A stretch of 64,000 nt of DNA from a virus: the IMG/VR virus record IMGVR_UViG_3300017917_002644, positions 10,635 through 74,634 of that record; one strand, given 5' to 3'. Position numbers and translations under genes: made by a program. The notes beneath the pieces were generated by a model. The model had not been told where the DNA came from. It ran no database searches and worked only from the letters and a program-made list of their open reading frames with translations. Position 1 is the stretch's first letter. Every line of letters starts with the position of its first letter. Shown piece after piece: positions 10,633 through 61,114 of this stretch.

Positions 10633-11487
10633 CTATATAATTTTTTTTCTATTTTCTTCCGCAATTGTTATATTATTATAATAATCTCTGGATATTTTAT
10701 AAATTTTATGCCAATCATTTAATCCATTTAACCCCAAATCTTCTGCTTCTTTTCTAACTACATAATATGGAATTGGTATTTCGCAATGTGGGTGTATGTT
10801 CCAAAGTTTTAAGTATCTATAAAGTAAAACGCCAGGACCACAAAAATTTTCAACATCTTCAATAAAATGCCCATATTTTCTTTTTTCATCTGCTCTTTCT
10901 ATAATATCTTTGTTCCATCTATACAAATTTGATATTATATCCATTGTTGGTGAATCCGAATAAAAAAACACATCATCAAATGATGGATAATTAAATTCGG
11001 TTGGAAATCTACCAAATGTGTTATTAACAGTATATGCCGTTAATGGATTTATTTTATGTAAATAAAATTTTTTAAACGGTATCATTGGTTTTGCAAATCC
11101 ATCCTGATAGTAGTTTATATCAAATCTGGTTTTTATTACCATATCGTAAACAAAATCGTTTTGTATTTCGTATTGTTTTTTTAACCAAACACTTCTCATA
11201 AATGAATAAAAAAGTGCTTGCCAATTTCTACCATATTTTTCAAACGAATATTCATCATAATCCATTAATAACGGATTAAATGCTGCTTTTATTTCTTCTC
11301 TTTCATTTCCAATTATTTTATAATCTTTTTTTTGAGTTACAACTTCATTACTGTTTCTGTAAGTGTTTGTGTCCCACGTATGTATAAAATAATCAACATG
11401 AGCACCTATATTAAAATAACTTTTAATATTATCAATTGAGGTTCTCCATGTTCTCGGTTGTCCGCTTATACAAACTGCTATTCTCAT
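10633..11487 (-). CDS. Putative glycosyltransferase (IAVCxSGQxRT paralogue)
   Basis: MRIAVCISGQPRT, DYFIHTWD, YDMVIKTRFD, DDVFF. Start moved from 11508 to 11487 to match the paralogues. Confidence 0.6.
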   Translation of the reverse strand: MRIAVCISGQPRTWRTSIDNIKSYFNIGAHVDYFIHTWDTNTYRNSNEVVTQKKDYKIIGNEREEIKAAFNPLLMDYDEYSFEKYGRNWQALFYSFMRSVWLKKQYEIQNDFVYDMVIKTRFDINYYQDGFAKPMIPFKKFYLHKINPLTAYTVNNTFGRFPTEFNYPSFDDVFFYSDSPTMDIISNLYRWNKDIIERADEKRKYGHFIEDVENFCGPGVLLYRYLKLWNIHPHCEIPIPYYVVRKEAEDLGLNGLNDWHKIYKISRDYYNNITIAEENRKKII

Positions 11488-50594: not shown

Positions 50595-52286
50595 TTATTT
50601 ACTTATCAAATAATTCCCCATAACGAGATAATCCATATCGGAATTTAAGAATGTCCAAATTGCATCGTATGGAGAATTTGCCATAGTTTTACCTCTTAAA
50701 TTGAATGATGTATTTAATAGAATTGGAGTTCCACTAACCTTTTCAAACTCTTTTAATAAATCGTAATAGAGTGGGTTTTGTTCTCTTCTAACGGTTTGTA
50801 TTCTTGCTGAACCATCAACGTGGGTTACCGATGGAATTGGTTTGTAATCAGTTACTTTAACCACCTGATTCATATAAGGAACTTCTTCTTCCGAAATAAA
50901 ATACTTTTCAAAATCTTCAATAGTTACCGATGGTGCAAATGGTCGGAACATTTCCCTTTTTTTGACAACCTTATTAATTCTATCTCTAATATCTTTAATA
51001 TGTGGGTTACCCAATATAGAACGATTACCCAATGCTCTTGCACCAAATTCAGTTCTATTTTGAAACCATCCTATAATATTACCTTCATTTATCAGTTTAG
51101 AAACTTTTTTAAGTAATGGTTTATCACCTAAAAATTCCCATCTATCTTTTCCAAAGTTTTCGGTTATCCACATTTCAATAACTTCGTTATCATATTTAGG
51201 TCCTAAGTAAGGTGTTTGATTATCACCTCCTTCTACTTTTGGATTTCCTAATATATTGTGCCAATGATATAAACAAGCTCCAATAGAAGAACCCGCATCA
51301 GATGGCGCGTATGGTATCCATACCGAATTGATTGCTGCGTGCTTTTTTATTTTACCGTTTGCAGTTCCGTTGTATGCACATCCTCCACCTAACACTAAGT
51401 TTTTGGAATCAACTTTGGATGCCAATCGGTTTAGAATAAAATAGAACTTTTTCTCATACCATTTTTGGAGTGATGCTGCCAAATCCATATGGTGTTGTTC
51501 TATCTTTTCTTCTGGTAATCTTGGTTCAAATCCTATTAGTTTATTTAATTCGTAAGTAAACATTTCTGTATTTGAATATTCCCAAGTGAAGTATTTTTTA
51601 ACAACCTGAAAAAGATGTTTACTATTTCTTTCTATTTTATCAAAAACATACTCATATACTTTTGGGTCACCGTATGGTGCCAATCCCATAACTTTATATT
51701 CCCCACTATTTGGTTTGAATCCTAAGTAGGAGGTTATTGTGGAATAAACTAATCCCAAAGAATGTGGAAACTTTATATTATCTATTTCTTGGAACCCATT
51801 TTCATTACATACAGCAAATAATGCAGTATCCCACTCACCCACACCATCAATTGAAACCCCCAATGCTTCTTTGTATGGAGATGTGTAGTATGAAAAAGCA
51901 AGATGTGAATAATGGTGTTTTACATATACAATTTTACCATCATATCCAATTGTTTCTTTTAAATAGTTTTTTAAATCACCCTCTGTTTTAGAAAATGTTT
52001 CCTTGAAATCATTCCAAGTTTTGTTTTTAGAAATCCATCTTTTTCCTAATGTTTTAGAAACTCTATCGTATTTTAATTCGGGTTCTTCATACCAACAAAC
52101 TACATCTACATCACTAATTTTAACTTTTGCATAATCTAAACAGAATTGAATAGCCTGTAAAGGAAAAGAGTTATCGTGCTTAATGCCAGATAACTTCTCT
52201 TCTTCAATAGCTGCTATTACTTTTCCATCAATAACTATAACTGCTGATGAATCGTGATAAAATGCGGATAATCCTAATTGTATCAT
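50595..52286 (-). CDS. O-carbamoyltransferase (NodU/CmcH/TobZ family)
   Basis: HDSSA, EEEK, HHYSH, DGVGE, EYKVMGLAPYG, GGCAYN, DAGSSIGA, EFGARALGNRSIL, FRPFAP, HVDGSARIQTV, LLNTSFN. Confidence 0.95.
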   Translation of the reverse strand: MIQLGLSAFYHDSSAVIVIDGKVIAAIEEEKLSGIKHDNSFPLQAIQFCLDYAKVKISDVDVVCWYEEPELKYDRVSKTLGKRWISKNKTWNDFKETFSKTEGDLKNYLKETIGYDGKIVYVKHHYSHLAFSYYTSPYKEALGVSIDGVGEWDTALFAVCNENGFQEIDNIKFPHSLGLVYSTITSYLGFKPNSGEYKVMGLAPYGDPKVYEYVFDKIERNSKHLFQVVKKYFTWEYSNTEMFTYELNKLIGFEPRLPEEKIEQHHMDLAASLQKWYEKKFYFILNRLASKVDSKNLVLGGGCAYNGTANGKIKKHAAINSVWIPYAPSDAGSSIGACLYHWHNILGNPKVEGGDNQTPYLGPKYDNEVIEMWITENFGKDRWEFLGDKPLLKKVSKLINEGNIIGWFQNRTEFGARALGNRSILGNPHIKDIRDRINKVVKKREMFRPFAPSVTIEDFEKYFISEEEVPYMNQVVKVTDYKPIPSVTHVDGSARIQTVRREQNPLYYDLLKEFEKVSGTPILLNTSFNLRGKTMANSPYDAIWTFLNSDMDYLVMGNYLISK

Positions 52287-53884: not shown

Positions 53885-54442
53885 TTATATTATTGTTTTT
53901 TTAAAATTTTCTTTTTTCTTTAAATTATACCAATTTACTAATGAATATCTCGTTCCACTTTCAACTTCTGAAACTCTGTGTATATATTTTGATAAAAAAA
54001 TAAATAAATTTCCAACTCCTTTTTCAAAAGTTATTATATTATTATTATCTTTTAATTCTAATTTACCACCGGTATATTCATCATTTAATTGAATAACAAT
54101 AGAACAATATCTTTCATTTTCTCTTTCAATTTCAGGTCCATCTGAATGCCAACTATAATATTCACCTACATTATATTGTGTAAATTGAAAATTGGGATTT
54201 ATTTCTATTTCGTAATTTTTTATTTCTATTTTATTATTTAATAAGCGTATTATTTTATTATTTAATTCAATAAATTCGGAAGTAAATGCTACATTTGATT
54301 TTCTTGCTAATTCATTTTTTATAAAATTAGAGTTTGCACCAACTAAACCACTTTTTAATTCATAATTATCAATAGAATGTTTTATAATAGAATCACATTC
54401 TTCTTTAGATAAAAAATCGTATATGGTGGTATATTGAAACAT
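53885..54442 (-). CDS. 2OG-Fe(II) oxygenase (prolyl 4-hydroxylase/PKHD-like)
   Basis: WHSD, YTGGKL, HRVSEVESGTRYSLVNW. Confidence 0.9.
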   Translation of the reverse strand: MFQYTTIYDFLSKEECDSIIKHSIDNYELKSGLVGANSNFIKNELARKSNVAFTSEFIELNNKIIRLLNNKIEIKNYEIEINPNFQFTQYNVGEYYSWHSDGPEIERENERYCSIVIQLNDEYTGGKLELKDNNNIITFEKGVGNLFIFLSKYIHRVSEVESGTRYSLVNWYNLKKKENFKKTII

Positions 54443-58289: not shown

Positions 58290-58781
58290 TTATATGAATG
58301 TTTTTTTTATTTTTTGAATTTCTTTTTTTGCCATACAAAATGCTACCAATGTGTATCTGTGACCTCTTTTGACAGGTAAAACTTTATGAGCCAAATTCGG
58401 AGGAAAAGTTATTGCAGTATTTGTTACTGGTTTTAATATAGTTTCACTTTCATCTAAATTTTTATAAACAAATTCACCACCTTCAAAATCATCATTTAAA
58501 AAACAAACAACACTATTTACTTCAAATGGTGAATGATAATGGAAGTTTTTAGAAACTAAAAAATTTTGGGATATTTTTTGTAATCTTAATACACCACAAT
58601 CGTATATAAATCCTTTTTGTAAAAATACTTTTTCTATTTTATTACGAAGAACTTCTTGAAAATTTGAATATTCAAAATTATATATATCATCATTTATAAC
58701 ATTATACGTAGTATTTTTGGAAAAATAAATGATTTCATCATACAATTTTTTATCAAAAAAATCCGTATAAAATTGTAGCAT
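58290..58781 (-). CDS. 2OG-Fe(II) oxygenase, HxH variant
   Basis: FHYH, FLNDDFEGGEF, HKVLPVKRGHRYTLV. Confidence 0.85.
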   Translation of the reverse strand: MLQFYTDFFDKKLYDEIIYFSKNTTYNVINDDIYNFEYSNFQEVLRNKIEKVFLQKGFIYDCGVLRLQKISQNFLVSKNFHYHSPFEVNSVVCFLNDDFEGGEFVYKNLDESETILKPVTNTAITFPPNLAHKVLPVKRGHRYTLVAFCMAKKEIQKIKKTFI

Positions 58782-58894
58782 TATTGTAAATGTTTAATAC
58801 GAATTAAATTAATAACAGAATTAATTACTAATTTTACTTTGTTATCAGTATCTGCTGAAGTTAATTTTACAATACTTTTTATTTTATTACTCAT
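58781..58894 (-). CDS. 37-aa peptide (MSNKIKSIVKLTSADTDNKVKLVINSVINLIRIKHLQ)
   Basis: Read from sequence. Its TAA overlaps the oxygenase ATG (TAATG); starts 12 nt after the Hint-protein stop. Confidence 0.7.
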   Translation of the reverse strand: MSNKIKSIVKLTSADTDNKVKLVINSVINLIRIKHLQ

Positions 58895-58906
58895 AATTGA
58901 TATATT

Positions 58907-60823
58907 TTAGGCTCCAAATCCTGGTTTAAACTTTTCAATAACCTCTTTGTTGTGTGTTAAAACACCATTTGCGAAAAAATTATTATTATCTTTAACTTCA
59001 AATATATAAGTTTTTGTATCTATCAATGGTAATTCTTCTATTGAAACTATACTAACCATTTCTGTAATAGTTGGTAGATATAGTTTATCACCGATTTTAA
59101 TATCTTTAACAGTTTTATTTAAAGTATATCTTTCGTTTGTCAATTCTGATTTGTATGATGATAATTCAAATCCTTCAGTATAAAATGGATGGTCAAATGT
59201 ACAAATTGTTTCAACTCCATTATCAAATGTATATTTAACTAAATCATTATGTATTGGTGATTTTAATCCAACTACTTCTTTGGATTCTATTTTATTTTCC
59301 AACTCATTATATGATAAAACAATATCTCCTTCAACTATATCTTCAATATTTTTTTCTAAACCATCACTCATAAGAATTTTTGTACCACTTACAAAACAAA
59401 AGAATGGAGAATAATTCGGGTTGTGTTGAATTAACATTGTAGTTGCACGAGATAACATAGAATTATTATCTATATCCAATGCAGTTAAGAATACATCCTG
59501 TGGTTCCACATTTACTTCATATACTTCTTTCTCTAAAAATACTATTGAAGTAGAAACAACTTCTTTTTTCATAAGTTGATTGGTATCTCCGTTCATAATA
59601 ATAACTTTATCTCCAATTTCTAAATCATTTATATATTTAAATTTAGTAATATTTGAATCTTTTAATTCAATATAAATGTTTGAGTCTTTAGCATCATCCC
59701 AAGTTGTACCATCTTCTAATTCTACTCGTATAAATAACCCTTCATAATTTAATTTATTAAAACCAATAACTTCGGCAGTATTTACTATTATACTATTTTC
59801 GGTTTCTTCAAATGTTGAATTCCAAGATGAAAAATCAATAGCTCCGGTTGGTAAATTTGAAAATTGTGTAGATTTTACAATAGTACCAACTTCTAAATTA
59901 TCTATTCCTATTAAATTACCGTTTTCACCTATTATAACGGTATCTACATCCAAATGGAATGAAGGAACTCTATTATGAGATAATTTATTTATCCATTTTA
60001 TTTTAGATTTATTTGTAAGTTTGTTAGAACCACTTATAAATTCATCGGGCCATATATTATTTTCAACAAAAGAAGAAACTGTATATGAACCTAAATGTAA
60101 GGTATCTAAATTAGCACCATATAAAATATCTAAACTTCTTATAACGGAATATCTATTTTCTACTAAGTTATTTTCTGAATTTACAAATTGTTGAATCAGA
60201 TTATCTTCACTTAAAGAATTTTTTAAACCATTTAATTCATCTTCTGAAGTTACGTTATATAATGCGGGATATTCAGAAAGTTGATACATTGGAAATCTAT
60301 GTTTTACCACAACATTTGGTGATACATTTTGTATATTATCTATGTTTATGGTATCTAAAACATAATCATCAACTTTTAAATAAGTTGGAATAGAATAATT
60401 TTCATCTTGTATTAAATCAACTATTCCCTTTTTATCCGCACAATACACTTCATCTATAAGAGCAGTTGCATCATATGCCTGTCTTAATATTAATTTATTT
60501 TCACTATCTTCTATTTGTGGTACTGTAATTGAAGCGGCACCTACTTCATGTTTTGTAAACTGAATTCCTAAATTATTACAAATACTTTCTAAAACCTCTG
60601 AAAATACTATACCTGTTTCTGAAAAATTCATTTCAGTCTCTCTATTTACTATGTAATGTAATTCAGTAAATTCATTGGATGATATAAAATTTGTTAATTC
60701 AGTAAAATCAAAATCATTAAGTATATCATTATTATGGACACTAATGTTTGTATTCATTTCTATGAATTTAACATTATCATTTTCATCTCTTAAAAAATCA
60801 CTACCTATTAAAAGTGCTCTCAT
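58907..60823 (-). CDS. Circularly permuted ATP-grasp domain + two tandem Hint (intein-like) domains flanking a 7-aa peptide
   Basis: N-terminal GSDFLRDENDNVKFIEMNTN, VVVKHRFP, LIQQFV. Hint1 aa ~290-468 ends VYEVNVE...QHN. Hint2 aa 476-625 is CFVSGTKI..CTFDHPF..TYIFEV..NNFFANGVLTHN. Confidence 0.8.
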   Translation of the reverse strand: MRALLIGSDFLRDENDNVKFIEMNTNISVHNNDILNDFDFTELTNFISSNEFTELHYIVNRETEMNFSETGIVFSEVLESICNNLGIQFTKHEVGAASITVPQIEDSENKLILRQAYDATALIDEVYCADKKGIVDLIQDENYSIPTYLKVDDYVLDTINIDNIQNVSPNVVVKHRFPMYQLSEYPALYNVTSEDELNGLKNSLSEDNLIQQFVNSENNLVENRYSVIRSLDILYGANLDTLHLGSYTVSSFVENNIWPDEFISGSNKLTNKSKIKWINKLSHNRVPSFHLDVDTVIIGENGNLIGIDNLEVGTIVKSTQFSNLPTGAIDFSSWNSTFEETENSIIVNTAEVIGFNKLNYEGLFIRVELEDGTTWDDAKDSNIYIELKDSNITKFKYINDLEIGDKVIIMNGDTNQLMKKEVVSTSIVFLEKEVYEVNVEPQDVFLTALDIDNNSMLSRATTMLIQHNPNYSPFFCFVSGTKILMSDGLEKNIEDIVEGDIVLSYNELENKIESKEVVGLKSPIHNDLVKYTFDNGVETICTFDHPFYTEGFELSSYKSELTNERYTLNKTVKDIKIGDKLYLPTITEMVSIVSIEELPLIDTKTYIFEVKDNNNFFANGVLTHNKEVIEKFKPGFGA

Positions 60824-60868: not shown

Positions 60869-61114
60869 TTATAACCCGTCTACTACATCCCATTTGCCAA
60901 TACCACATGCTCCCTTTTTAGGTGAATGTATTTTTGCTTCCAAAGGACACCCACATTCTCCACAAATAACAGAAAAATCAACATCTTCAATTATCTGTCT
61001 TCTGTATGAGCAGGTTGAACATATTTTTAATCGCTTTAACGCAAGTTCTCTTTCGGATTGAGATGGTTTCCATTTGATAACCCATGCTTTTAGTATTTCT
61101 TCAAATTTATTCAT
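60869..61114 (-). CDS. Small Cys-rich metal-binding protein
   Basis: RLKICSTC..CGECGC..K..ACGIGKW. Confidence 0.75.
   Translation of the reverse strand: MNKFEEILKAWVIKWKPSQSERELALKRLKICSTCSYRRQIIEDVDFSVICGECGCPLEAKIHSPKKGACGIGKWDVVDGL

Follow-up and report, generated by a model that had tools for sequence, protein, structure and literature searches.

Results

Architecture of the gene and its locus

The window, the whole 64,000-nucleotide stretch of DNA that was analyzed (IMG/VR record IMGVR_UViG_3300017917_002644, positions 10,635 to 74,634), is part of a marine phage contig and carries on its minus strand a gene with an unbroken frame of 638 codons in a region of 26-28% GC. Its product, P0001, was predicted to consist of an ATP-grasp ligase domain, two Hint domains (Hint1 and Hint2) on either side of the heptapeptide PNYSPFF, and a short tail (Table 1). 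When the translation was rechecked, every motif was found exactly where the first-pass annotation had placed it: D9-x12-E22-x-N24, VVVK (171-174), LIQQF (209-213), HLDVDTVII (290-298) and IQHN (465-468), and in the C-terminal half PNYSPFF (469-475), CFVSGTKIL (476-484), TFDHPF (542-547) and THN followed by K (623-626).

Table 1. Features of the P0001 locus, with positions counted from the first letter of the window.
Feature	Positions	Strand	Evidence or remarks
Whole ORF, 638 aa, P0001	58907..60823	-	ATG start; ATP-grasp - Hint1 - PNYSPFF - Hint2 - 13-aa tail
Putative circularly permuted ATP-grasp ligase domain, aa 1-285	59969..60823	-	Structure matches to domain model
D9-x12-E22-x-N24, presumed Mg/ATP-binding hairpin shifted to the N-terminus	60752..60799	-	Invariant in 125 relatives
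Hint1, aa 286-468, no N-terminal nucleophile (H290), ends H467-N468	59420..59968	-	VIA, hhalign
PNYSPFF spacer, aa 469-475	59399..59419	-	Between Hint1 and Hint2
Hint2, aa 476-625, complete mini-intein/type-A-BIL-like (C476, T542-x-x-H545, H624-N625)	58949..59398	-	Profiles, structure
Tail KEVIEKFKPGFGA, aa 626-638, +1 residue Lys, not Cys/Ser/Thr	58910..58948	-	Translation
C2, 81-aa Cys-containing small protein, directly upstream	60869..61114	-	Conserved partner gene of the family
2OG-Fe(II) oxygenase, cluster C1, directly downstream, H-Y-H replacing H-x-D	58290..58781	-	PF13640, E 8e-8

The AlphaFold2 model of the complete protein had a pLDDT of 81.8. Homologues of P0001 were detected down to E 1e-125, and six residues (D9, E22, N24, R114, D124 and R229) were invariant among 125 diverse relatives, placing the domain signal well past chance. 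Gene order on both sides of the P0001 gene agreed with that of loci L097-L099. A close relative of the whole architecture was not found in any collection searched, including a scan of metagenome contigs, so that P0001 stands as a singleton. A megablast query with 12 kb of the window likewise returned no match.

The N-terminal domain

A separate model of residues 1-290 of P0001 reached a pLDDT of 94.4. Foldseek matched the N-terminal domain to yeast glutathione synthetase (1m0w, E 1.4e-6) and YgiC (7uk8, E 3e-6), and when 48,161 representative chains were searched with the domain model, the best 17 matches were all ATP-grasp enzymes. VIA comparisons gave Z 9.6 for YgiC (rmsd 4.0, 203 aa), Z 9.0 for GspS and Z 8.1-8.8 for eukaryotic GS. 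Permuted ATP-grasp enzymes aligned from model residue 1-3, whereas unpermuted RimK, LysX/ArgX, TTL, Ddl and PurK aligned only from about residue 48-53 (VIA). The fold matches and the alignment from residue 1 bear out the earlier suggestion that the domain is a circularly permuted ATP-grasp.

The D9/E22/N24 triad presumably is the counterpart of the Mg ligands in D-Ala-D-Ala ligase. K174, the presumed ATP-binding Lys, was nearly invariant in the 125 relatives, and the P0001 domain retains all family-invariant residues. Pfam and NCBIfam gave no ATP-grasp family for P0001 at E<=1, their curated ATP-grasp profiles not being matched, and PHROG returned nothing for the N-terminal part. Judged by the model, residues 1-285 adopt a circularly permuted ATP-grasp fold and are a putative ligase.

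The two Hint domains

Hint1 had no family match by sequence. Its model (residues 287-468) superimposed on the NpuDnaB intein 4o1r with Z 15.9 and an rmsd of 2.0 A over 139 aligned residues (VIA), where H290 lay over the first residue of the intein and N468 over its terminal Asn, and on Hedgehog 6tyy with Z 15.0 (VIA). In an hhalign comparison, the Hint1 and Hint2 profiles matched with 98.2% probability (E 3e-14), H290 standing opposite C476. The AlphaFold2 model, VIA and hhalign thus agree with the proposal that Hint1 is a Hint fold that lacks Cys1 but keeps the terminal His-Asn.

Splicing calls for an N-terminal nucleophile or, in class 2, for Thr B:7/His B:10 with Cys+1 or, in class 3, for Cys F:4 (PMC4031507). 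Hint1 carries H290 at position 1, A378 and S381 at the block-B Thr/His positions, Pro469 at +1 and no Cys in block F, and was rejected as a splicing intein of class 1, 2 or 3. The H467-N468 pair is nearly invariant across the family, while the +1 residue varies. This pattern suggests that Hint1 has kept the Asn-lyase half of intein chemistry only and would cut solely at its own C-terminus.

Hint2 scored above the curated cut-offs of TIGR01445 intein_Nterm (33.4 bits, cut-off 24.5), TIGR01443 intein_Cterm (16.8 bits, cut-off 15.6) and PF07591 PT-HINT (28.1 bits, cut-off 27.7). Its closest solved relative is BIL2 of Tetrahymena thermophila (6tmm/6y75; phmmer E 6.5e-10, Foldseek E 2e-8, 29% identity), and it also matched the C. 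thermocellum BIL 2lwy (E 1.3e-3). The Cys1, block-B TxxH and terminal His-Asn of class 1 inteins are all present, and the +1 position, Cys/Ser/Thr in that class, is occupied by Lys626. Motif positions and profile scores therefore confirm Hint2 as a complete Hint domain without a +1 nucleophile, and this combination of Hint fold, Cys1, terminal His-Asn and no +1 nucleophile is that of a type-A BIL, for which definition and chemistry have been described (PMC4031507).

The absence of a +1 nucleophile is general. After Hint2-type domains in relatives, the next residue was K, R, V, M, I, A, F, P or N, and never C, S or T; after the last Hint, it was Lys in 31 and Arg in 4 of 63 cases. Relatives with the Hint2 subtype of P0001 mostly end in HN-K with nothing further. 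Every post-Hint tail has a Lys no more than 5 residues away, and K-x is the ending of most Hint-less tails.

This Lys bias would fit a splicing reaction, in which the alpha-amine of Lys626 attacks the Cys476 thioester after Asn625 cyclization and joins PNYSPFF to KEVIEKFKPGFGA. The resulting 20-aa Lys-containing tail (2302.6 Da if Hint1 releases it) would be the true C-terminus or a substrate of the ligase-Hint1 part. Type-A BILs can join their flanks without a +1 nucleophile, but cleavage products predominate in them (PMC4031507). In relatives with a Cys-rich peptide and a Hint, joining '...CxxCGGG' to 'VEGKEKKLS' or 'FAKKLA' would restore the Hint-less ends '...CGGGFQKL' and '...GGTPKL'. Most short-spacer relatives, however, have a C-flank of one Lys and an N-flank of 0-2 residues, leaving little to join, and we regard splicing of P0001 as rather unlikely.

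Instead of being hydrolyzed, the thioester could also hand on the upstream chain, as happens in BUBL BIL2 or Hedgehog. That chain would be the heptapeptide, or ligase-Hint1 should the cut at Asn468 not yet have been made, and its acceptor would be a Lys epsilon-amine (of Lys626 or of a target protein) or another nucleophile. BIL2 makes a Lys isopeptide bond (PMC8616854), the frequency of Lys and Arg after the last Hint is in line with such a reaction, and the conserved catalytic residues of Hint2 call for a function. Against this, 29% identity is too low to carry a mechanism over, and Lys-rich ends occur in Hint-less members too. Transfer of this kind is in our view improbable.

Distribution and variation of the family

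The P0001 family comprises at least 273 clusters at E<=1e-3 and 298 IMG/VR loci, from which the gene contexts were drawn. A tblastn search of 50,697 GenBank phages with P0001, a typical family member and C2 gave no family-specific match; P0001 hit only inteins of other phage genes, by way of Hint2, whereas the typical member and C2 had no matches at all. In a set of 185,579 species genomes, the family was found on one 3.7-kb contig only, and its Atlas clusters are 96-100% viral and unnamed. The family is almost exclusively viral and is absent from the GenBank phages searched and from curated protein families.

Beyond the ligase and Hint1, family members differ widely. In about 70% of those examined, the invariant HN is followed by a peptide of 23-55 residues with at least 6 Cys and many Trp/Tyr, which is the protein end or is followed by a Hint or a Peptidase_S74 module. 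Tails of 178 sequences fell into Cys-rich only (85), Cys-rich and Hint (28), Cys-rich and S74 (14), short spacer and Hint (41) and trivial (10). The short-spacer group has 1-3 tandem Hints downstream. The payload evolves faster than the ligase-Hint1 body.

Peptidase_S74 (PF13884, cut-off 22 bits) was matched by P0118 with 25.3 bits; P0066 (21.6) and P0064 (17.2) stayed under the cut-off. The start of the module, S-D-x-x-x-K-x-N, was seen in P0029, P0031 and P0033-P0036, and not in P0001. P0030 and P0032 end with '...SSCK', and P0033 runs on from '...SYCK' directly into 'SDIYYKENI...' and an S74-like domain. By sequence, the terminal modules (BIL-type Hint, S74) are interchangeable at the same site and putatively self-removing.

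On the family tree, which was built with FastTree only, tail type requires at least 24 changes. There are homologues without Hint2-type domains, and at least 7 gains or losses of Hints have taken place. P0001 falls into a clade of 24 (99% local SH-like support) together with 22 Cys-rich-plus-Hint proteins and one with a Cys-rich tail only. The peptides of these clade-mates have 6-8 Cys, and P0001 is the sole member without such a peptide and the sole one with a short spacer; its heptapeptide is therefore a recent, derived state. Identity between Hint2 and the terminal Hints of distant family members amounts to 52-57%, against only 24-34% for the N-terminal parts of the same proteins, while clade-mates with 44-46% N-terminal identity bear a different Hint subtype. 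This suggests that Hint2 is a recombinant import and that P0001 is of mosaic origin.

A singleton and mosaic architecture might point to an artefact, namely a chimeric metagenomic contig with its join close to where Hint1 meets Hint2, or to a multidomain protein that is not processed at all and in which HN and Cys1 are relics. We consider both highly improbable. The frame is uninterrupted in a region of low GC, the flanking gene order is that of other loci, HN is invariant across the family at 25-45% identity, and several kinds of putatively self-cleaving module share one position.

The spacer between the Hint domains

The first-pass annotation had proposed PNYSPFF as the product of the gene and had asked whether the spacer between the Hint domains is always short. 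A comparison of 63 Hint2-bearing representatives did not support either idea. Spacer lengths were bimodal: in 28 representatives the spacer was 23-55 aa long and Cys-rich, and in the 35 others it was 0-12 aa long and unconserved (W, A, AP, DP, YY, LN, PPF, VIRGGS and others), with a length of 0 in 11 of these. No relative carries PNYSPFF according to a homologue search and a metagenome contig scan, and it stands where the clade-mates of P0001 have the 23-55-aa Cys-rich peptide.

PNYSPFF as a functional peptide would be freed at its N-terminus by Asn468 and activated at its C-terminus as the Cys476 thioester, yielding a linear, head-to-tail cyclic or conjugated heptapeptide that the ATP-grasp domain and the oxygenase might tailor. 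The catalytic residues at both junctions are intact, and the spacer was modelled as a flexible linker (pLDDT <50 at 471-474). Precedent exists in BUBL, where two BIL domains flank a payload and one of them, BIL2, is the nearest solved relative of Hint2. Within the family, a payload between a Hint of the C-terminally cleaving type and one of the thioester type is found in P0001 (7 aa) and in 28 relatives (23-55 aa), and the relatives with the Cys-rich peptide fit the same logic. The double-Hint scheme thus finds support in general terms, but the heptapeptide as its product does not: the spacer is absent or long in homologues, which the first-pass annotation itself had named as grounds for abandoning the idea. 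The derived state of P0001 within its clade and the imported Hint2 also speak against it, and we think it unlikely that PNYSPFF is functional. The heptapeptide is probably a leftover linker or junction remnant and not a selected product. Roles of P0001 in anti-defence, signalling or tagging are speculation.

Neighboring genes

C2 was present in 75 of 80 related loci, mostly immediately upstream, with C32, C35, C51, C54, C56, C70, W11 and W75 invariant. It belongs to no known family: Pfam matches were far under threshold, a PDB profile search gave weak zinc-ribbon-like matches (E >= 0.012), and its Atlas clusters are unnamed. The oxygenase C1 is a neighbor of the family gene in 33/34 loci whose tail is Cys-rich and in 12/15 without such a tail. 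The HxH variant seen in the window occurs in only 2 of 149 relatives. Between the P0001 gene and the oxygenase lies a 37-aa ORF with no Cys and no detected relatives.

A halogenase gene was present in 31/34 loci with a Cys-rich tail vs 1/15 without, and C3 in 32/34 vs 0/15; striking as they are, these are raw counts with a single phylogenetically independent contrast, so that any coupling of Cys-rich tail and halogenase is tentative. Halogenase and 2OG pairs also occur without the P0001 family, in Pelagibacter phage HTVC008M and in cyanophages. C3 and C5 look sulfotransferase-like by eye (PRTGTTS and PRSGST near the N-terminus); neither had a Pfam or PHROG match, and we do not claim them as sulfotransferases.

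At the window locus, genes for the halogenase, C3, C4 and C5 were not found, and the coding strand of the 74.6-kb contig contained no Cys-framework peptide. A RiPP system combines a conserved core peptide with dedicated tailoring enzymes, and the window accordingly does not qualify as one.

Discussion

We favor, with a probability of roughly 0.55, the reading that P0001 is a derived member of a large virus-only family which has lost its payload and is capped by a mobile type-A-BIL-like Hint, PNYSPFF being a junction remnant. The family plan would be a permuted ATP-grasp ligase, a Hint cutting only at its C-terminus, a variable payload and an optional self-removing module. In P0001, Asn468 would cyclize after translation and cut the chain into a 53-kDa ligase-Hint1 body and a 19-kDa remainder. 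Hint2 would excise itself as a type-A BIL, by an N-S acyl shift at F475-C476 and cyclization of Asn625. As only small fragments would remain after the Hint1 cut and the removal of Hint2, PNYSPFF would be a remnant, left when a 'Cys-rich peptide + resident Hint' was swapped by recombination for a mobile terminal-type Hint. The ligase-Hint1 body and C2, the small Cys protein encoded upstream, would form the conserved working unit. The gene in the window is itself probably degenerate. For P0001 and its relatives alike, all of this cleavage chemistry is predicted from sequence.

Some observations do not sit easily with Hint2 as a mere passenger. Since the Hint1 cut alone would free the ligase, a passenger role leaves unexplained why C1, TxxH and HN are kept in terminal-type Hints across distant hosts, and this conservation hints at a role for the Hint2 thioester. 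Payload-less arrays of two or three tandem Hints are also odd for a simple passenger. In addition, the P0001 architecture has been seen once only, which counts against the preferred reading.

For the family as a whole, a peptide system is a possible, if doubtful, interpretation that we put forward tentatively. The ligase-Hint part may act as a 'leader' that frees, by Asn cyclization, a quickly evolving peptide that has 6-8 Cys and is rich in Trp/Tyr, in a protease-free self-releasing system of marine T4-like phages. BIL-type Hints or S74 would expose or activate the C-terminus of the peptide, and Trp halogenase, 2OG oxygenases, APS-kinase-linked enzymes and the permuted ATP-grasp would tailor it, for example by cyclization or C-terminal ligation. 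The window gene would represent a lineage without the peptide that has kept the machinery.

The wider interest of P0001 lies in its family, which has at least 273 clusters and joins known self-processing chemistry in a new way. Its one-sided Hint, with only the Asn-lyase half of intein chemistry apparently kept, is fused to the putative permuted ATP-grasp, and what follows downstream varies, from a Cys-rich peptide that evolves fast to as many as three Hints in tandem or an S74 module. This architecture appears undescribed at the family level; our literature search found no relevant description of an ATP-grasp-Hint fusion or of a phage RiPP with a halogenase. If the predicted cleavages occur, the proteins would be natural single-chain devices that release or activate peptides without a protease and, as natural counterparts of SICLOPPS and BUBL, would be relevant to intein biotechnology. 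Two broader questions are touched by the family: what keeps Hint domains in existence apart from true inteins, and what lies behind the halogenase and 2OG-oxygenase gene clusters of marine T4-like phages, which have long gone unexplained. Should the peptide-system reading be true, it would provide a new route to RiPP-like peptides and a substrate for the phage 'prnA' halogenases.

Comparison with known systems

Eukaryotic GS, GspS and YgiC-YjfC are the best structural matches of residues 1-285 and likewise have the Mg-binding D...E-x-N ahead of the remaining fold. GS/GspS-type permuted ligases activate a peptide C-terminal carboxylate. The P0001 domain differs from them in its identity of only 10-16%, its lack of a Pfam ATP-grasp match, its size (about 285 aa vs 370-480 aa) and its fusion to Hint. 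Graspetides resemble the family in having an ATP-grasp enzyme beside a peptide substrate, but their ligases are unpermuted, separate enzymes that act on leader-bearing precursors, and 7mgv compares with the P0001 domain at only Z 4.7.

Class 1 phage mini-inteins (gp41-1, 6qaz) share with Hint2 the fold, blocks A, B and G, a presence/absence polymorphism between homologues of the host gene, and indications that they move horizontally. Unlike them, Hint2 has no +1 Cys/Ser/Thr, a 'C-extein' of 1-13 residues and no homing endonuclease, and its insertion point is not a conserved catalytic site in its host. In pretoxin-HINT proteins of polymorphic toxins, a constant N-terminal part is also followed by a Hint expected to free a variable C-terminal payload, and PF07591 is the profile matched here. 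The P0001 family departs from this pattern, with a 25-55-aa Cys/Trp/Tyr-rich peptide or nothing as payload instead of a toxin domain, a releasing Hint without Cys1, and neither immunity gene nor secretion context.

Type-A BIL domains were reportedly described by Amitai in 2003 and Dassa in 2004. Hint2 has their Cys1, block-B TxxH, terminal His-Asn and lack of a +1 nucleophile, and cleavage at both ends would be expected, perhaps with the flanks ligated through aminolysis. BILs were described from variable bacterial proteins; the Hint2 type resides in phage genes, at the extreme C-terminus, in up to three tandem copies and behind a one-sided Hint. SICLOPPS shares with P0001 the order of intein C-end, peptide and intein N-end, but is engineered from two halves of one intein and requires Cys/Ser at peptide position 1.

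The BUBL loci of ciliates, finally, also have a payload between two Hint-type domains without Cys/Ser/Thr at +1, and process it without protease or ATP. Their payload is a ubiquitin-like domain that becomes conjugated to Lys (PMC8616854), whereas that of P0001 has 7 aa and that of its relatives is a Cys-rich peptide. P0001 further differs from BUBL in an upstream Hint without Cys1, in the putative ATP-grasp ligase fused in front, and in being encoded by a phage rather than a eukaryote.

Domain structure of the window protein

The motifs that the first-pass annotation had placed in the window protein are all found at those positions: D9-x12-E22-x-N24, VVVK171-174 and LIQQF209-213 in the ATP-grasp part, H290-LDVDTVII and I-Q-H467-N468 in Hint1, and C476-FVSGTKIL, T542-F-D-H545-P-F and H624-N625 in Hint2, the last followed by K626 in a tail of 13 residues. 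Curated-family matches were confined to residues 476-625, which passed the intein N-terminal, intein C-terminal and PT-HINT models at or above their cut-offs.

Features of the window and their coordinates
Feature	Position (nt)	Strand	Remarks
C2, 81-aa protein	60869-61114	-	upstream of family gene
Window gene	58907-60823	-	one ORF, 638 codons, uninterrupted
PNYSPFF	59399-59419	-	aa 469-475; spacer between Hint1 and Hint2
37-aa ORF MSNKIKSIVKLTSADTDNKVKLVINSVINLIRIKHLQ	58782-58894	-	between Hint gene and oxygenase; no Cys; no relative among the loci examined
2OG-Fe(II) oxygenase	58290-58781	-	downstream of family gene
Second 2OG oxygenase	53885-54442	-	same cluster; 40% identity to copy at locus L076
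Nol-like carbamoyltransferase	50595-52286	-	phrog_1601, E 3e-126

Residues 1-290 were modelled separately on 125 homologues (pLDDT 94.4), and the structural matches of the model were ATP-grasp ligases only. Eukaryotic glutathione synthetase, glutathionylspermidine synthetase and YgiC/YjfC scored best (Foldseek E 1e-6; VIA Z 8-9.6), and their alignments begin at residue 1; the alignment of unpermuted ATP-grasp enzymes starts only at about residue 52. Together with the invariance of D9, E22, N24, R114, D124 and R229 in the 125 relatives, these matches support the circularly permuted ATP-grasp fold proposed earlier.

An AlphaFold2 model of the window protein (44 homologues as input, pLDDT 81.8) gave residues 287-468 a Hint fold, as had been suspected despite the missing N-terminal Cys. 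In this model, Hint1 superimposed on the NpuDnaB intein with Z 15.9 (VIA; rmsd 2.0 A, 139 residues aligned), so that H290 coincides with intein residue 1 and N468 with the terminal Asn, and on a bacterial BIL, BUBL BIL2 and Hedgehog with Z of about 15. Profile-profile alignment linked Hint1 to Hint2-type domains with 98.2% probability, with Cys1 facing H290 and the block-B Thr and His facing A378 and S381. With these replacements, nothing of the N-terminal junction apparatus is left in Hint1, and His-Asn alone is retained. The requirements for class 1, 2 and 3 splicing inteins (PMC4031507) rule it out as a member of any of these classes. Asn cyclization with a cut after N468 would be the sole Hint chemistry remaining to it.

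Tails after the conserved His-Asn

A search with the first 475 residues of the window protein found 44 clusters in one database, 273 representative clusters (E<=1e-3) in a second, and 298 loci in IMG/VR. No family member was found in 50,697 GenBank phage records, and the only match among 185,579 species genomes was one contig of 3.7 kb from a Pelagibacterales MAG. The family has no PHROG and no given name, and its N-terminal part has no Pfam family.

The His-Asn (HN) that ends Hint1 is nearly invariant family-wide, and the residue after it is variable. Among 178 scored sequences, 85 (class a) end, after HN, with a peptide of at least six Cys and many Trp and Tyr (consensus x-C-W-C-P-W-N-Y-C-G-H-W-C-N-S-W-Y-C-P-x-C...P-x-K-[LIV]; length up to about 170 aa in some lineages). 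In 28 sequences (class b) a peptide of this type precedes a complete Hint with a short tail rich in Lys, and in 14 (class c) an S-D-x-x-F-K-E-N... domain, which scored over the Peptidase_S74 threshold in P0118. Another 41 (class d) have a spacer of 0-12 unconserved residues, one, two or three tandem Hints and nearly always an HN-K end, and in ten (class e) HN is followed by a trivial 5-9 residues. Evolution is faster in the Cys-rich tail than in the enzyme (74% tail identity at 90% ATP-grasp identity), even though the cysteines of the tail are fixed.

P0030 and P0032 end in ...SSCK, and in their close relative P0033 ...SYCK runs straight into an S74-like domain. Such close pairs show the added modules to be caps that can be removed; the S74-like domain of P0033 would cut itself off exactly after ...SYCK. 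On the tree of 173 N-terminal regions (FastTree), tail class must have changed at least 24 times, with at least seven gains or losses of Hints and at least six of S74, so the tail modules are mobile.

Several further layouts were seen. A Peptidase_S74-like intramolecular-chaperone domain, a self-cleaving tail-fibre module here on a non-fibre protein, replaces the Hint after the Cys-rich tail in P0029, P0031, P0033-P0036, P0064, P0066, P0097, P0118 and L081. The 912-aa proteins of L090 (4241-6979), L091-L094 and L100 lack a payload and carry three tandem complete Hints after Hint1 (HN-AP-[C...HN]-x-[C...HN]-x-[C...HN]-K); forms with two Hints are those of L088, L096-L099 and P0148-P0189. In P0159 (647 aa), a Hint separates Hint1 from the Cys-rich peptide (HN|CF...HN|KKAAC...Cys-rich), and thus a Hint can occupy either side of the payload.

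Origin of the PNYSPFF spacer

The window protein falls in a clade of 24 (99% local SH-like support) comprising 22 proteins with Cys-rich peptide and Hint, one with the peptide only, and itself. Because it is the only short-spacer form there, loss of the Cys-rich peptide in its lineage is derived and recent. Its Hint2 differs in subtype from that of its clade-mates: it shares 52-57% identity with the terminal Hints of proteins that match the window protein at only 24-34% in their N-terminal parts, and relatives at 44-46% N-terminal identity carry a different Hint. The gene order (267-aa gene, 101-aa gene, C2, family gene, 2OG oxygenase, ..., 104-aa gene, HD protein, Hsp20) is shared with loci L097-L099, whose family member has Cys-Phe straight after HN and two Hints. 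On the simplest reading of these sequences, recombination would have replaced the Cys-rich peptide and resident Hint by a terminal-type Hint, with PNYSPFF as the joint.

We therefore favor, with a probability of about 0.55, PNYSPFF as a junction remnant and the window protein as a variant that has lost its payload. Cyclization of Asn468 would divide the chain into a ligase-Hint1 body of 53.2 kDa and a remainder of 19.4 kDa, and Hint2 would act as a type-A BIL, with a thioester at F475-C476 and cyclization of Asn625.

The catalytic residues of Hint2 are conserved across distant hosts, although the Hint1 cut would free the ligase anyway; this conservation weighs against a Hint2 that is only a passenger and leaves room for three alternatives. 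Splicing of the BIL type, giving a 20-aa tail containing Lys, is rather unlikely; in type-A BILs ligation of the flanks is possible, but cleavage dominates (PMC4031507). Transfer by Hint2 in the manner of BUBL or Hedgehog would suit its nearest solved relative (29% identity), BIL2 of the Tetrahymena BUBL locus, a Hint that moves a ubiquitin-like domain onto lysine (PMC8616854); we consider it improbable. The first-pass annotation saw in PNYSPFF the heptapeptide product itself and expected a spacer that is always short and hypervariable behind a fixed HN. Spacer length ahead of the first downstream Hint is bimodal: 35 representatives have 0-12 unconserved residues, with none at all in 11 of them, and 28 others have 23-55 aa. 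With its short spacer unique in the clade and its Hint2 mosaic, a heptapeptide product is improbable. That the protein is an artefact or is left unprocessed seems very improbable.

Genomic neighborhood

The contig (G000, 74,634 bp; window 10635-74634) carries genes for baseplate wedge, tail fibre and carbamoyltransferase and represents 74.6 kb of a T4-like marine myovirus. The genome is incomplete, since the contig lacks a terminal repeat and stops 3.2 kb upstream of the family gene. Every gene called in the window is on the minus strand. The second 2OG oxygenase and the Nol-like carbamoyltransferase belong to the auxiliary genes typical of marine T4-like phages.

C2, a virus-only protein for which no known family was found, is the most constant neighbor: 75 of 80 related loci have it upstream of the family gene, usually directly so. 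Its C32, C35, C51, C54, C56, C70, W11 and W75 are invariant; the window copy lacks the C-terminal extension of about 15 aa (Y....K...T.I) of most relatives. The downstream oxygenase has H-Y-H in place of its relatives' H-x-D metal motif (HxH in only 2 of 149 aligned relatives).

In many loci the genes follow one fixed order: APS kinase, small kinase-like protein, membrane protein, 2OG oxygenase, Trp halogenase (PF04820, E 1e-88), 2OG-like proteins, cluster C3, C2, family gene, SGNH/DUF6071, 2OG oxygenase, cluster C5, and unknowns or a radical-SAM-like protein. In L037 (219-13427) and about 60 similar IMG/VR loci the family gene sits within a conserved cassette that comprises APS kinase, the Trp halogenase, SGNH/GDSL-like hydrolases, a GT4 glycosyltransferase, a radical-SAM-like gene and 4-5 genes resembling 2OG-Fe(II) oxygenases. 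The window retains only C2, the family gene and the downstream oxygenase, plus the second oxygenase; the whole 74.6-kb contig has no halogenase, C3, C4 or C5, and its coding strand encodes no Cys-framework peptide.

The halogenase is present in 31 of 34 loci with a Cys-rich tail versus 1 of 15 without, and C3 in 32 of 34 versus 0 of 15, each with only one independent contrast in the sample. Since halogenase-oxygenase pairs also occur without the family gene in cultured phages such as HTVC008M, a RiPP-like tie between tail and enzymes is attractive but unproven.

Comparison with known systems

We found no description in the literature of an ATP-grasp ligase with a one-sided, HN-only Hint fused behind it, of a rapidly evolving Cys-rich C-terminal peptide after such a Hint, or of interchangeable self-removing caps, three-Hint arrays included. 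Tentatively, the family might be a protease-free self-releasing peptide system of marine phages. Its component parts, permuted ATP-grasp ligases, Hint/BIL domains and S74 caps, are already known, and the natural system nearest to its architecture in logic is BUBL.
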